This document shows, piece after piece, positions 513-43,811 of a DNA stretch of 60,593 nt. The notes under the pieces were generated by a model, which was given only the letters and a program-made list of their open reading frames with translations, did no database searches and had not been told where the DNA came from. Within the stretch, counting starts at the first letter, position 1, and every line of letters starts with the position of its first letter. Both the position numbers and the translations under genes were made by a program. Source of the stretch: an uncultured Methanosarcinales archaeon. Its GTDB lineage: Archaea; Nanobdellota; Nanobdellia; Woesearchaeales; GW2011-AR9. The stretch spans positions 1 through 60,593 of the forward strand of contig CAZXEM010000001.1 in assembly GCA_964639875.1 (NCBI GenBank), given 5' to 3'.

Positions 513-1808
513 TTACTCATCAACATAAGTTTTTAAACGTTGATTTCTGAAAGGATTACGAAGTCTTTCTAAAGCTCCAGCTTCAATTTGTCTAATTCTT
601 TCTCTGGTAACTTTGAAATCTTTTCCAACTTCTTCTAAAGTATAATCTCTATCTTCACCAATCCCAAATCTCATTCTAAGAATTTTTTCTTCTCTTGGCG
701 TTAATGTTCTTAAAACCCTGGATACGGCCATTACTAATCCATCATCTAAAGAATACTTTTCTGCATCAGGACTTTTTTCATCAACAATAAAATCAACCAT
801 TGTAGTATCTTCTTCCTCGCCAACAGGCATATTTAAAGAAATAGTATCTTTAGATATTTTTTTAACTTTTTTATAAGTAGCGAGAATTTTTTTAGAGTCC
901 TTATTTTCTTTAGCTTTATCAGTAAGACCACCATACAAATGTTCAGCGATTTCTTTATCAGTTCCTTGACGATTAAATTTATGCAAAAAATCATAATCTG
1001 CTTTACTCCATTTGTTTAGAAATTCAATAGTGTGTACAGGTAATCGAATAGTTCTACTGGTATCAAATATTGATCTTGTAACGCATTGTCTAATCCACCA
1101 AGTGGCATAAGTTGAAAATTTATATCCTTTTTTGTAATCAAATTTGTCAACTGCTTTCATTAATCCAATATTTCCTTCTTGGACAAGATCTTTTATACTT
1201 AATCCACCAATTCTATACTTTTTAGCAATACTGACAACTAAACGAAGGTTTTTTTCAACAAACTCATTTCTTAATTTTAATTCTAAATCTAAGTAACCTT
1301 TCATCAAACCTAATTTCTCGGCAGTAACTCGAGTTTTAATTCGATAATTCTCACTTTCTTTAAGATCAATATCTTCATGTAACCTCAACTCTTCATTTAA
1401 GTTCAAGTGGTAAGAACCCCTATACAAAATGTCAAACATGTTATCATAAATTAACGTTGTTCTTTTCTTAGTTTTTCTTTTACCAAGCAGTTCTTCTAAA
1501 TCAGAAAGAGCAATTTCATATAATTCACTACTATGACCATTACTTCGAACTTTATCAATTACTCCTCTTTCAGTTTCAAACAATTCCTGAAATTTTGAAA
1601 CCAGTAAAGGGTAACCAAACATATTTTTTAAACGATGAGTTCTAGTATGTTGACAAATACCATAAAACAACTCTTTATAACAATCTTCCAATCTTATAGC
1701 TAGATTTATTTCATCATCTCTATCCATAAGTTTTTCTTCACCAATTTTACTTAAATAAAAACTAAAAGTTCGATCATCTTCAAGACCTCTAACTTTTTTT
1801 CCCACCAT
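513..1808 (-). CDS. Bacterial-type RNA polymerase sigma-70 (RpoD-family) homologue
   Basis: All conserved sigma-70 regions are readable. Region 1.2: FYLSKIG...EINLAIRLE. Region 2: [12 protein letters not shown]..., [35 protein letters not shown]. Region 3: RTIRLPVH. Region 4: [14 protein letters not shown]...[22 protein letters not shown] spacer of about 110 aa separates regions 1.2 and 2. Confidence 0.85.
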
Positions 1809-4883: not shown

Positions 4884-7175
4884 TTACTTCTTTTTGGTTA
4901 ACCAAATCAAAACAACAACTGCAATTATTAACACAATTATTAAAGCGACCCATTTCCAAGGAAACTTACTTGCTACTTCTTCAGCTTCAGCAACAACTTC
5001 TTCTTCAACAGATGTGTCTTCTTCTGAAACAACTTCTTCTCCACCTTCAGCTGCTTCTTTAACTACTTCTTCTGCAGTTAAAGGTATTGCATCTACTTTC
5101 TCAGCAATTATAAAATAGCTAAATCCAGGCGTTTCTGCTGTATAATGGACGTATGTTCCGTCATCATTACCCATGGTGGTAGATAATTCAATCCATTCCC
5201 CATCTACGTATCGTTGTAAAGCAACATTAGCTTTACCAATCTTATTTTCAGCTAACCAAGTTTTAGTTACTTTAAACTTAATAGTAGGGTTAACTAAGAC
5301 ATCTTCTTTCAAAGCAGAACTTTTAGTGATCTGAATATTCTTGTAAACATCACCACTAAAAGTTTTAACTGAATTTGGGAAACTAGATTTCCTTTCAACT
5401 TTCATCCAAGCCCCGTACGTTTTCTCAGATACACCAAACTCAACAGAAGTTATACCTATTGCCCCGTTGTTAACTTCTAAAACAGTAGTAGTTCCTGGAC
5501 TAAGGGCTGCCCAAGTTTCTTGGGCATATTCTCCAGTTACTTGCGTACTTGAAGAACCACCCCCACCACTTGAAGATGAGCTACTACTTGCAGCTGTAAC
5601 TGTATAACTAGCAGTACCAGTGGCGGTAAGACCGACTGGATCCGTAGCAGTACAAGTTGTTGTCTTTGTTCCAGAGGTAGCAGTTGAATCCCCTGAATAA
5701 GCATAACTTAAAGTTCCACCCATAGCAACAGAATTGTCAGATGCAGAACAAGTACAAAGACGATCAGCTCCAATCGCTACTTCAGTACAACCAACCGCCA
5801 CGCTATATGGTGTCTCGTTATCTACATGTAATGCATAATAATCGTTGTCAACTGCAGTTATCACTGAACCATTATAGGTACAATTAACAGTCCAATTTGT
5901 AGAGACGTTTGTTACTAGACTCTGGTTGTTAGTAATGGTCATTACTGTGTTGTTTAAAGCAGTATTATTCACTCCATTAGCAATGTAATCTCCAGTAGAA
6001 TTTGTAACCCACAATTCACAAGAAACATTATTATCAGTTAAAGTAGTATTAACAAAACCACTTGCGTAACTAAAATTAAAAGAAACGTTTCCAGCGTCAG
6101 TACTATTAGTAAATGTATTGTTAAGAGGAGTTACAACTGTAACCGTAACAACATCAAGGTAAAACTTGTTAGCAAGAGTAGTACCAGAACTTCCAATATT
6201 ACTTGCTAAATCAGTACAATTAACATACCAGAGATGTGTTCCCGCACTTAAACTAGCGTTGGTAGTCCAAGTAGTTGCAGTATCATTTAAGACTGTACTA
6301 TTAACACCATAGCCAGTATCATCAATAAACAGTTCACAGGAAGCATTTGGTGAAAGACCATCTGTAAAACTGTATTCTAAATTAGGCGTAGTATCATCGG
6401 TCCAAGTCCAATTTTGTAATGTAGATGTATCATTTAAACTTACTGTAGGAGCAGTTAAATCAACATAAACCTCTACTGATTCCGCATTCTTATTGTTCAA
6501 AGTATCATTAGCAATCACTTTCAAAGTGTGTAGACCTTCTCCTAATTCCGCAGCAGTATAAGAAATGTTATAGTAATTATTACTCTTAGTTACTAAACCT
6601 TCAACGTAACCATATCCATCATAAGTATTATTACTCAAATTAACATCAGCTACACCAACACCAGAATCAGTAACAGTAACATTAATAATAAACTCTCCGC
6701 CAGAACCAATATAACTATTTGCAGTAGGGGTATTGATAGTTACAGAAGGTTTGGTATTATCAATCTGTACTCCTGTAATCGTACTATTTTCGATATTTAT
6801 ACTGGAACTGTTAGTAGCATTAACAGTTAAATTATAAGTATCATCAGCAAGAAGTATTGCAGTATCAACCGTAGTATTAAAAATAGTTTGGTTTGTAGTA
6901 GAATTCTCAAATGTTACGTTATAAACTAAAGAACCATCCGTCGCATTATAAAAAAAGAAGGTGACGTTAGTAGCGTTACTTTCGTAAGAATTGTTTAACG
7001 TTGCGTTGAGTACAATCTTACCAGAATAATTAGTATCTGCAGTTGGTTCAACTACACTAATACTTTGATCCGCAAATTCTGCAACTATCAAATAAGCAAA
7101 TATTGCAATCACACAAACTAAAAACATCATATAAAATAATTTTTTATCTTTCATCTTCTCAACCTCTTTTTTCAT
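4884..7175 (-). CDS. Large cell-surface (S-layer-like) glycoprotein candidate with C-terminal TM anchor
   Basis: Signal peptide followed by dozens of N-x-S/T sequons in Ig-like repeats. Ser/Gly linker SSSSSSSGGGGSSS, PGF-pre-PGF-like segment ending ...YTAETPGFSYFIIAEK, acidic spacer, then TM plus basic tail WKWVALIIVLIIAVVVLIWLTKKK. Confidence 0.6.
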   Translation of the reverse strand: MKKEVEKMKDKKLFYMMFLVCVIAIFAYLIVAEFADQSISVVEPTADTNYSGKIVLNATLNNSYESNATNVTFFFYNATDGSLVYNVTFENSTTNQTIFNTTVDTAILLADDTYNLTVNATNSSSINIENSTITGVQIDNTKPSVTINTPTANSYIGSGGEFIINVTVTDSGVGVADVNLSNNTYDGYGYVEGLVTKSNNYYNISYTAAELGEGLHTLKVIANDTLNNKNAESVEVYVDLTAPTVSLNDTSTLQNWTWTDDTTPNLEYSFTDGLSPNASCELFIDDTGYGVNSTVLNDTATTWTTNASLSAGTHLWYVNCTDLASNIGSSGTTLANKFYLDVVTVTVVTPLNNTFTNSTDAGNVSFNFSYASGFVNTTLTDNNVSCELWVTNSTGDYIANGVNNTALNNTVMTITNNQSLVTNVSTNWTVNCTYNGSVITAVDNDYYALHVDNETPYSVAVGCTEVAIGADRLCTCSASDNSVAMGGTLSYAYSGDSTATSGTKTTTCTATDPVGLTATGTASYTVTAASSSSSSSGGGGSSSTQVTGEYAQETWAALSPGTTTVLEVNNGAIGITSVEFGVSEKTYGAWMKVERKSSFPNSVKTFSGDVYKNIQITKSSALKEDVLVNPTIKFKVTKTWLAENKIGKANVALQRYVDGEWIELSTTMGNDDGTYVHYTAETPGFSYFIIAEKVDAIPLTAEEVVKEAAEGGEEVVSEEDTSVEEEVVAEAEEVASKFPWKWVALIIVLIIAVVVLIWLTKKK

Positions 7176-18407: not shown

Positions 18408-18454
18408 ATTTTTATGACATTAGTCGCGCCCAAAAAGATAAAATCTTTTTCAGG

Positions 18455-18468
18455 ATGCGACGTTGGCA
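18455..18468 (-). repeat. Promoter-proximal direct duplicate of the tRNA-Ser 5-prime end
   Basis: atgcgacgttggca at 18455-18468 is identical to 18395-18408, which covers the first 13 nt of the tRNA plus 1 flanking nt. Period is 60 nt. Confidence 0.7.
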
Positions 18469-28537: not shown

Positions 28538-28549
28538 TTTAAAAAAAAG

Positions 28550-28755
28550 AGCCCCGGGCGAGACTTTCAGAATGATTCCGCTTGATTCGCAGTGCGTTGG
28601 GTTTTATACCCAACCCGCTCTTGCGTATCAAATGAGCGTAACCATTTGGTTGAACTCGCGACCTCCTGATATCTTGATGTGCTTTGGATTAATTTTGTAA
28701 ACACATCCGATAGAGATTTACAAGTCAGGTGCTATAGCCACTAAGCCACCGGGGC
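28550..28755 (-). tRNA. tRNA-Thr(UGU) with a 48-nt anticodon-loop intron (about 28671-28718) and an 85-nt T-loop insertion (about 28564-28648)
   Basis: Minus strand reads: acceptor GCCCCGG/CCGGGGC; D-arm GCTT-AGTGGCTA-TAGC; anticodon stem CCTGA/TCAGG with loop CTTGTA[intron]A; T-stem GCGAG/CTCGC enclosing 92 nt; discriminator U. A T8 run (28541-28549) follows. Confidence 0.8.
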
Positions 28756-28855
28756 AATACATGCTTGGTAACTTAAGGGGACTAAGAGAGCAACGCGAAC
28801 GCATGTCGCCTGTCTTATCAAATGGGACTCCATTTGCCATCTAAGCTACCGGGGC
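28756..28855 (-). other. tRNA-Thr-like 5-prime fragment (acceptor strand plus D-arm-like sequence) forming the promoter-proximal part of the tRNA-Thr locus
   Basis: TATTGCCCCGGTAGCTTAG at 28841-28859 repeats 28741-28759 with one mismatch (period 100 nt). Next comes the hairpin CAAATGG-AGTCC-CATTTGATA, related to the first hairpin of the T-loop insertion. No anticodon or T arm was found. Confidence 0.4.
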
Positions 28856-28878
28856 AATATCAAGGATTTTATTTACTC

Positions 28879-28888
28879 TATTTATTAA
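28879..28888 (-). promoter_or_regulatory. TATA-box candidate positioned for the tRNA-Thr fragment
   Basis: Minus strand TTAATAAATA centred about 28 nt upstream of 28855. No TATA lies upstream of the full tRNA at 28755. Confidence 0.4.
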
Positions 28889-43722: not shown

Positions 43723-43811
43723 GGCCCCGTGGCTTAGCCTGGTAGAGCGCACGACTGATATGCTCAAGCTAAGAAATCGTGAGGTCCGGGGTTCAAATCC
43801 CCGCGGGGCCA
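43723..43811 (+). tRNA. tRNA-Ile(GAU) with a 15-nt canonical anticodon-loop intron (about 43761-43775)
   Basis: Acceptor GGCCCCG/CGGGGCC; D-arm GCTT/GAGC; anticodon stem CACGA/TCGTG with loop CTGATA[intron]A; T-arm CGGGG-TTCAAAT-CCCCG; discriminator A. Confidence 0.9.

Follow-up and report, generated by a model that had tools for sequence, protein, structure and literature searches.

The tRNA-Thr(UGU) gene studied here is interrupted in its T-loop by an 85-nt insert, which is likely to be a mobile bulge-helix-bulge (BHB) intron located between tRNA positions 59 and 60 and belonging to a family of small, modular, hairpin-rich elements spread among the tRNA genes of Woesearchaeota (DPANN archaea). 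A sister copy interrupts the tRNA-Ser(UGA) gene of the same window, i.e. the whole 60,593-nt stretch of genome that was analysed, and statements about the host genome concern these 60 kb. As judged from its sequence, the insert would be an archaeal BHB tRNA intron with clear splice signals; these signals are an addition to a previous sequence-only reading of this DNA, which had not mentioned them. The two genes and the parts of the intron are listed below; L-numbers used in the text (L018, L138, etc.) are labels of the compared loci or contigs that carry related elements, and MFE stands for minimum free energy.

28755-28550, minus strand: tRNA-Thr(UGU) gene, interrupted by two introns (called by ARAGORN once the 85-nt insert is removed in silico).
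28755-28719, 28670-28649 and 28563-28550, minus strand: exons of tRNA-Thr, the last base being the discriminator (ARAGORN after the same removal).
28648-28564, minus strand: T-loop intron of tRNA-Thr, 85 nt, between tRNA positions 59 and 60 (ARAGORN and alignment; 59/60 deduced from the BHB rule).
28718-28671, minus strand: anticodon-loop intron of tRNA-Thr, 48 nt, at 37/38 (ARAGORN; BHB read from the sequence).
28621-28648, minus strand: module M1, CAAAUGG-UUACGCU-CAUUUG-AUACGCAA, near-invariant 28-nt 5' hairpin (sequence comparison).
28596-28614, minus strand: central hairpin P5, GUUGGGU-AUAAA-ACCCAAC (covariation in alignment A2, described below).
28571-28581, minus strand: 3' strand of the closing helix, GCGGAAUCAUU, pairing with intron nt 3-13 (MFE fold).
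28563-28569, minus strand: 3' half of the BHB, UGAA plus bulge A-G-U, which would hold the 3' splice site, the final U being position 60 (folds).
28649-28654, minus strand: 5' part of the T-loop, UUCAAC, with UUCA as 5' strand of the central helix and A58-C59 plus C1 as relaxed bulge (folds).
18407-18222, minus strand: tRNA-Ser(UGA) gene, which also has an 18-nt anticodon intron (ARAGORN after removal of the 85 nt).
18320-18236, minus strand: sister T-loop intron in tRNA-Ser (sequence comparison).

With the insert in place, neither gene was found by default ARAGORN or by Rfam, and Rfam gave no match in 28540-28870 at E ≤ 10. After deletion of the 85 nt from each locus, ARAGORN called a tRNA-Thr(tgt) with a 48-nt anticodon intron and a tRNA-Ser(tga) with an 18-nt one, the precise removal restoring a canonical cloverleaf in both cases. 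The equal spacing of the T-stem halves and the identity of about four-fifths reported by the sequence-only reading are borne out: these halves lie 92 nt apart in both genes (7 T-loop nt plus the 85-nt insert) and the inserts are identical at 67 of 85 positions without any gap (79%), for exons that are 59% identical. The anticodon introns of 18 and 48 nt, which it had considered unrelated, are 31% identical. It had also pointed to blocks common to the two inserts, and one 20-mer (CAAATGGTTACGCTCATTTG) indeed occurs exactly twice in the window, once in each insert, for 0.01 occurrences expected; in nhmmer, the two copies reach E-values of 1e-26 and 1e-25. The anticodon introns of both genes, at 37/38, form canonical BHBs as read from the sequence (for tRNA-Thr, CUUG:CAAG with bulges UAA and AUA), and that of tRNA-Thr has no sequence kinship to the T-loop intron.

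In each bulge of a BHB, the archaeal splicing endonuclease cleaves 3' of the second nucleotide. The position 59/60 is deduced from this rule and, since the cut falls after the second bulge nucleotide, the spliced T-loops would be UUCAACU (Thr) and UUCAAAU (Ser). Outward from the T-stem (G49-G53 with C61-C65), the frame consists of (i) a 3-nt 3' bulge, A-G-U60, (ii) a 4-bp central helix between U54-U55-C56-A57 and the UGAA at the 3' end of the intron, (iii) a 5' bulge, A58-N59-C1, beyond this helix and (iv) an outermost helix that pairs, in MFE folds, intron nt 3-13 (AAUGGUUACGC) with nt 68-78 (GCGGAAUCAUU in tRNA-Thr). The 5' bulge is relaxed, its 3 nt either facing a single nucleotide or being accompanied by an A.C mismatch. 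This geometry is found in both window copies and in 52 of the 57 T-loop copies among the matches listed. In alignment A2, which comprises 13 distinct sequences of the window's intron subfamily, the central-helix pair A57:U is replaced by G57:C in five sequences, i.e. the intron covaries with the exon at this helix. With the specified structure, 96.1% of the cells of A2 pair, versus 24-43% when the partners are slid by 1-3 columns, and none of 500 shuffles reaches the covariation score; since related sequences enter such shuffle-based tests, the resulting statistics are not probabilities. Furthermore, where the 5' end of a variant reads CAGCUGG, its tail is a matching CCAG.

Inside the intron, the central hairpin reads GTTGGGT-ATAAA-ACCCAAC in tRNA-Thr versus GTTGAAC-ATAAA-GTTCAAC in tRNA-Ser and differs by three fully compensatory pairs, as the sequence-only reading had noticed. 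Its idea that the helix is what is kept holds across the 13 sequences, where five of the seven pairs change on both sides around a nearly invariant AUAAA loop, and the covariation that it had proposed to check is supported for this hairpin in A2. The 11-bp closing helix uses as 5' strand the 5' half of M1 (28646-28636); 94.7% of its cells pair, and changes are one-sided only (G:C/G:U, U:A/U:G) because this 5' strand is invariant. Its lone A.G mismatch is an A:U pair in L011, L073 and L131. Since indels in the 3' tail weaken column-based covariation (L131 and L073 are misaligned in A2), this helix was assessed by the duplex energy of each sequence: z is -3.9 versus shuffles for tRNA-Thr and ranges from -2.6 to -6.8 for tail pairing in the window's subfamily. 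For 38 distinct T-loop introns drawn from all subfamilies, pairing of the 3' tail to the 5' end has a mean energy of -8.2 kcal/mol, versus -4.6 for shuffled tails (Wilcoxon 4e-9, a p-value that overstates the independence of these related sequences).

The 5' module can also adopt a local hairpin, CAAAUG/CAUUUG, which is mutually exclusive with the closing helix. This hairpin covaries (stems CAGCUG/CAGCUG, UAACUG/CGGUUA and CAGCUU/AAGCUG with the same loop) and is real at the family level; nested MFE folding of single sequences prefers the closing helix by 7.1 kcal/mol for tRNA-Thr and 3.2 for tRNA-Ser. The sequence-only reading had proposed that GUUACGC pairs with GCGGAAY to give a pseudoknot. 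The pairing stands, being kept in relatives, but the folds most simply place it as the inner part of the nested closing helix, in competition with the local hairpin, even if a true pseudoknot may form. In tRNA-Ala(GGC) of L124 (-) 2902 and L137 (+) 2471, a 47-nt derivative of the window's subfamily has lost the whole central domain and retains M1, the closing tail and the BHB frame. Therefore, the central hairpin is not needed for the splice frame; M1 and the central hairpin with its covariation belong to the element as such and are dispensable for tRNA function and for splicing.

The insert belongs to a previously undescribed family of small hairpin elements found in Woesearchaeota tRNA genes and at some other sites; a literature search, which was not exhaustive, returned no published description of the family, of its module sequence or of conserved T-loop introns in DPANN. 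Further homologues, which the sequence-only reading had suggested looking for, are numerous. A scan of one genome per species, with a pattern taken from the central part of the intron, gave eight archaeal loci from six Woesearchaeota/Nanoarchaeota metagenome-assembled genomes (MAGs), plus seven chance bacterial matches. In all eight archaeal loci the match lies in an insert that interrupts the T-loop at an identical site; the host tRNAs were read by eye as Ile, Ser(GCU), Ser(CGA), Ala(GGC) and Val. All eight share an invariant M1 (the 5' 28 nt, CAAATGGTTACGC-N-CATTTGAWACGCAA) although the pattern excluded it. A metagenome scan seeded with exact M1 matches hit at least 118 contigs; such a seed misses divergent members and its counts are lower bounds. 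Among the matches listed, 57 T-loop contexts yielded 52 distinct introns in which the BHB frame is complete, hosted by tRNAs that ARAGORN assigns to Ala, Ser, Glu, Val, Gly, Thr, Leu, Arg and Gln (several of these calls being unreliable owing to additional introns), and by tRNAs Ile and Pro read by eye. Hence, the 59/60 intron is hosted by at least nine amino-acid families, and at least two copies per genome occur in three genomes. The introns split 3' of M1 into subfamilies, each with its own central hairpin, and this part often bears the motif GCUCRCUNNGYUCGCAA. Copies of the M1 module reach lineages whose ScpA proteins are only 42-50% identical.

Several variations on this scheme were observed. 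T-loop introns at 59/60 without any M1 occur in L101 and L079 (~6600-6800), and a D-loop intron in L021 (+) 4073 combines a variant of M1 (TAACTGGTTACGCTCGGTTAACACGCAA) with a BHB that looks plausible (GUCC:GGAC). In seven contigs (L022, L040, L045, L055, L095, L117 and L135), M1 is embedded in a shared non-coding environment, conserved and apparently structured (GGGGAAACC..GGTTTCCAGCCC immediately followed by M1, then GGACCATTGAGCGCAGCGAAATGGTCC; for instance L040 (-) 2345), which matched no Rfam family. Moreover, smaller hairpin modules are present in some and absent from other near-identical introns (L058 vs L060; L006/L019 vs L009/L044; L037 vs L038; L034 vs L109 vs L133), which suggests nested insertion; among these modules are 54 nt inserted after CATTTGAT, 62 nt inserted within M1 and the module CAGCTTCTTGCTAAGCTGGCACGCA.

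The distribution of the introns reveals gains and losses. Introns that are 79-100% identical sit in tRNAs whose exons are 59-82% identical; for instance, two tRNA-Ser genes of MAG H32-bin054_1 have 100% identical introns and exons 82% identical. Among orthologous tRNA-Glu genes (L021/L119, L101 and L047), D-loop, anticodon and T-loop introns are variously present or absent and the upstream element is common to them, and orthologous tRNA-Val genes beside ScpA have T-loop introns built of different modules. In L138, the closest relative of the window (ScpA 93% identical, near-identical promoter, same flanking genes), tRNA-Thr(UGU) has no T-loop intron and is a different allele (acceptor GCCTCTG, T-loop TGCAATT). 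There (711-1331, minus strand), an orphan tRNA-Thr fragment is followed by the gene of a 206-aa LAGLIDADG endonuclease (Pfam E 8e-19) and then by the complete tRNA-Thr. This arrangement, also found at L139-L142, looks from its sequence like a cassette that replaced the resident gene. A LAGLIDADG homologue also lies near a tRNA in L079. The 85-nt intron itself has no open reading frame (ORF).

The sequence-only reading had envisaged a mobile intron family inserting at one T-loop position. Its mobile part is upheld by the occupation of 59/60 in many non-orthologous tRNAs and by presence and absence, but the single site is not: about half of the M1 matches listed are not T-loop introns, and M1 is found as well at the head of D-loop introns and of insertions that are not introns, the latter pointing either way with respect to the host gene. 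In many copies, the sequence preceding the element is repeated after it over 12-76 nt, and the second or the first copy of this flank runs into the intact gene, thereby rebuilding what was interrupted. The duplicated flanks include 5' parts of tRNAs ending in the D-loop as well as 3' parts of tRNAs to which the element is antisense. Insertions in protein genes (zinc-ribbon-like, rpl2, histone-like and one further gene) are located a few codons in, or at the very end, and duplications of 12-26 nt or more rebuild the start or end of the ORF. For instance, the elements of L064 (-) ~8635 and L025 (-) ~103 come with duplications of the first 14 nt of a zinc-ribbon-like protein gene and of the first 22 nt of rpl2, respectively; those of L028 (+) 5821 and L070 (-) 472 are located at gene ends, and in L028 the element provides a new Leu-stop matching the original C-terminus. 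Units made of a tRNA 5' fragment or gene end plus an M1 element can also be repeated two to three times in tandem, as in L116 (-) 1510-1713, where the unit is about 101 nt, and L070 (-) ~240-600. Because the duplication length is variable (12-76 nt) and no fixed target duplication is seen, the footprint of an ordinary transposase was excluded. A duplication that always starts from the transcription start fits L064 and fails for L025, an internal operon gene, and for the antisense cases.

Related elements and orphan tRNA fragments also precede both genes of the window:

28756-28836, minus strand: M1-type element of 81 nt in the 5' leader, CAAATGG-AGTC-CCATTTGATAAG..GCGACAT..TTAGTCCCC (M1 skeleton pattern).
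28837-28855, minus strand: orphan copy of tRNA-Thr positions 1-19, GCCCCGGTAGCTTAGATGG, with two differences from the gene (sequence).
18408-18467, minus strand: orphan copy of tRNA-Ser positions 1-13 (18467-18455), followed by a hairpin spacer of 47 nt with GCGAC (sequence).

In the window, the M1 skeleton pattern matches only the 28756-28836 element and the T-loop intron, for 0 expected. This leader element is about three-quarters identical (by eye) to the one located between an orphan fragment and tRNA-Val in L144/L145. For each gene, the orphan, i.e. 19 or 13 nt of its own 5' end, lies right behind a TATA-like box (28879-28888 for tRNA-Thr) and is followed by the 81- or 47-nt hairpin element. 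Therefore, the complete gene would be transcribed with a structured leader of ~60-100 nt. The Thr orphan is homologous to the orphan fragment found at the same promoter in L138, and the layout of the Ser orphan and spacer also precedes tRNA-Ser genes in L018, L024 and L131. In MFE folds, the 3' acceptor strand pairs equally well with the orphan copy and with the real 5' end. The leader hairpins of tRNA-Ser(CGA) in L018 and L024 differ by a compensatory pair (CAAAATG..CATTTTG vs CAAAACG..CGTTTTG) and have on their 3' side a GCGAC that is complementary to tRNA-Ser positions 7-11 and also present in the tRNA-Ser leader of the window. Given this compensatory pair and the retention of GCGAC, the leader elements seem to be under structural constraint. 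The orphan and spacer were also considered as a third, D-arm BHB intron, and this was rejected since, as checked by hand, the 4-nt helix partners are not complementary in Ser or in Thr; for this reason, the leader is presumably removed by RNase P at the tRNA 5' end.

These data lead us to propose the following course of events. Transcription would start at the promoter upstream of the orphan fragment and give a precursor in which the T-stem is extended by the A-G-U60 bulge, the U54-A57:UGAA helix, the A58-C59-C1 bulge and the 11-bp closing helix. The tRNA splicing endonuclease would cleave in both bulges and an RtcB-type ligase would join the exons into the 7-nt T-loop UUCAACU, the intron probably being circularised; the 48-nt anticodon intron would be removed likewise. 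For cleavage, ligation and the likely circularisation by RtcB, we rely on established archaeal tRNA biology. Since the exon half of the BHB is made of the universal T-loop UUCR and any T-stem, one intron sequence could be spliced from any tRNA, and 59/60 would therefore be a permissive landing site. As for the mode of transposition, we infer movement of copies between tRNA genes and, more speculatively, spread by homing after endonuclease cuts or by capture at DNA breaks; double-strand breaks made by endonucleases such as the LAGLIDADG protein of L138 may allow such capture. More broadly, M1 elements could be viewed as the archaeal counterpart of eukaryotic introners, i.e. miniature mobile elements that, as DNA, integrate into tRNA genes as well as elsewhere, survive as a BHB intron or by a duplication that rebuilds the gene, and are perhaps mobilised in trans by LAGLIDADG breaks. 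We put forward this broader view tentatively, with a chance of being right somewhat short of even.

Several points weigh against the interpretation of the insert as a mobile intron. Splicing, circularisation and even expression of the intron are predictions from the sequence. The 5' bulge is noncanonical and would consequently need an endonuclease of broad specificity, which was not identified in the genome (only 10 ORFs examined). RNAalifold, run on a gappy alignment, prefers the local hairpin to the closing helix. Near the copies, 1574 ORFs showed no enrichment of transposases, reverse transcriptases or other mobility genes, and no copy was found in the viral contigs searched. The conservation of M1 in the metagenome set partly results from ascertainment, the seed being exact, although the genome scan, free of this constraint, still found it invariant. 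Finally, near-invariance of M1 across lineages with ScpA 42-50% identical could equally reflect a function for the host.

This last point leads to the alternative already raised by the sequence-only reading, a functional RNA released by splicing: the excised, probably circular intron would be a structured RNA useful to the host (protein-binding, regulatory or a cis-acting aid to tRNA maturation) and tRNA genes would be mere expression sites. Such a role has a precedent in the Haloferax tRNA-Trp intron, which carries a C/D box guide RNA. It would account for the almost invariant M1 and AUAAA loop, in a subfamily drawn from six MAGs and a module reaching such distant lineages, and for hairpins kept by compensatory change, tRNA-Ser leaders (L018 vs L024) included. 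However, we consider it unlikely, as copies are found antisense to, and outside, host transcripts, the orthologous gene of close relatives does without the intron, and near-identical hosts differ by whole modules that were exchanged, inserted or lost; furthermore, no C/D boxes or k-turn signature were seen by inspection and Rfam gave no match at E ≤ 10. Alternatively, the introns could be retained as a protection, the interrupted T- or D-arm DNA no longer offering a target to homing endonucleases and integrating elements (idea of Randau and Soll, discussed in PMC4090602). The tRNA genes of these genomes are repeatedly struck by insertions, and the resident tRNA-Thr of L138 is broken in its D-loop and seemingly replaced by a cassette with the LAGLIDADG gene and another tRNA-Thr allele, both points being in favour of this hypothesis. 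Nevertheless, protection explains neither the conservation of the intron sequence nor the presence of the module outside tRNA genes and could be a side effect of a selfish element; it is improbable as the reason for these introns.

A third scenario dispenses with transposition: one ancient T-loop intron would be inherited vertically and homogenised by gene conversion through the T-arm and acceptor flanks. The common position of all intronic copies agrees with this, as do the two tRNA-Ser genes of one MAG, whose identical introns lie between identical T-arm flanks. However, the T-stems of the window's Thr and Ser genes differ (GCGAG vs CCCGG) and their exons are only 59% identical, the hosts span at least nine amino-acid families, M1 heads insertions in protein genes and intergenic DNA that have no tRNA homology, and orthologues differ by presence or absence, making this scenario very improbable. 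Lastly, it is scarcely credible that both loci are dead, unprocessed tRNA pseudogenes disrupted by insertions, as their absence from the calls of standard tRNA finders and Rfam and the adjoining orphan fragments might suggest, since cloverleaf stems, discriminator and terminator (for tRNA-Thr, a T-run directly 3' of the gene) are intact once the introns are removed, splice-site helices covary with exons across relatives, and the window has no other tRNA-Thr(UGU) or tRNA-Ser(UGA) gene.

Other identities were rejected for the insert. Known Rfam families are excluded, the only match being one ordinary tRNA (search at gathering thresholds over the window and 16 loci, and at E ≤ 10 over the locus). 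It is not a C/D box guide: neither copy has RUGAUGA, and CUGA occurs only where the central helix needs UGAA (UUGA, AUGA and CGAA in relatives). A k-turn/L7Ae site was discarded by inspection, and a group I or group II intron by size (85 nt versus a ribozyme core of more than 200 nt) and by the Rfam result at E ≤ 10. Miniature inverted-repeat transposable elements and insertion sequences do not fit duplications of 12-76 nt, end complementarity found mainly in intronic copies and the lack of transposase enrichment. The search of viral contigs likewise gave no match for a viral or plasmid origin.

Regarding the host, FttA/aCPSF1, an archaeal CCA-adding enzyme, a proteasome subunit and ScpA are among the products of neighbouring genes, and the top FttA matches belong to Candidatus Woesearchaeota/Nanoarchaeota, with up to 91% identity. 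On account of these archaeal genes and FttA matches, the host is a low-GC DPANN archaeon. At the two FttA-homologue loci checked for synteny, the tRNA-Ser neighbour is not conserved. A third tRNA gene of the window, Ile(GAU) (43723-43811, plus strand), has a 15-nt anticodon intron at 37/38 as its sole intron. ARAGORN calls it His(atg) by default and Ser(gga) when introns are allowed, and Rfam scores the interval as a tRNA without naming the isotype, for a sequence that reads tRNA-Ile(GAU); these miscalls are another mis-annotation caused by an intron.

The family provides a concrete case for studying intron gain in archaeal tRNAs, since it offers hundreds of recognisable copies, some as introns and others not, orthologous sites that are either filled or empty, traces of insertion (orphan tRNA fragments and flank duplications of variable length) and a homing endonuclease at an orthologous locus. 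If true, the introner-like interpretation would offer a direct, traceable mechanism by which archaeal tRNA genes acquire introns late. T-loop introns also explain the under-prediction of tRNA sets in DPANN, as two of the three tRNA genes of the window are invisible to ARAGORN and Rfam, and the 28-nt module and the BHB rule could be added to tRNA finders.

The position 59/60 is among the non-canonical intron positions known in Thermoproteales. Like the non-canonical archaeal BHB introns (hBHBh' and relaxed forms), the insert lies in a tRNA loop, is framed by a 4-bp helix and 3-nt bulges, restores the tRNA when removed and can coexist with another intron in the same gene. Ordinary archaeal tRNA introns are short and poorly conserved, whereas in this family many tRNAs and genomes share a near-invariant module of 28 nt and a hairpin that covaries. 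Non-canonical BHB introns and the transposition of tRNA introns in Thermoproteales are known, the mechanism of this transposition being unknown (PMC4090602). According to Fujishima et al. (2010), as summarised in that article, Thermoproteales have near-identical introns in non-orthologous tRNA genes, implying late gain. On the basis of this summary, both cases share near-identical introns in non-orthologous tRNAs and an unexplained mechanism; the T-loop family differs by its occurrence in a DPANN phylum, its preference for 59/60 plus the D-loop and its modular construction with a conserved terminal hairpin. It also differs by M1 copies outside introns with flank duplications, none being reported for Thermoproteales in the summary. 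In DPANN, including a Woesearchaeota genome, more disrupted tRNA genes, incomplete predicted tRNA sets and endonucleases with an extra loop have been described (PMC5829648). At the tRNA-Thr locus of Caldiarchaeum subterraneum, a recombinase element of 1.8 kb lies between a 5' tRNA fragment and an intact tRNA (PMC3293823). Here too, an orphan 5' fragment is parted from a complete tRNA by inserted DNA and tied to intron gain, but the insert of the window's type is ~50-100 nt and gene-free (L138 having a LAGLIDADG gene) and the arrangement recurs at many tRNAs. A LAGLIDADG gene at the orthologous tRNA-Thr locus of a relative recalls LAGLIDADG-encoding introns and free-standing homing endonucleases, and homing would explain the site-specific spread of the T-loop intron. 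In contrast to such introns, the 85-nt intron is devoid of ORF. Eukaryotic introner elements are transposon-derived spliceosomal introns. M1 elements differ from them by relying on a protein endonuclease and a BHB instead of the spliceosome and by having no demonstrated transposase, fixed target duplication or terminal inverted repeats. As a working analogy, both can be viewed as miniature non-autonomous elements that bring their own splice signals, so that their insertions in genes are tolerated.

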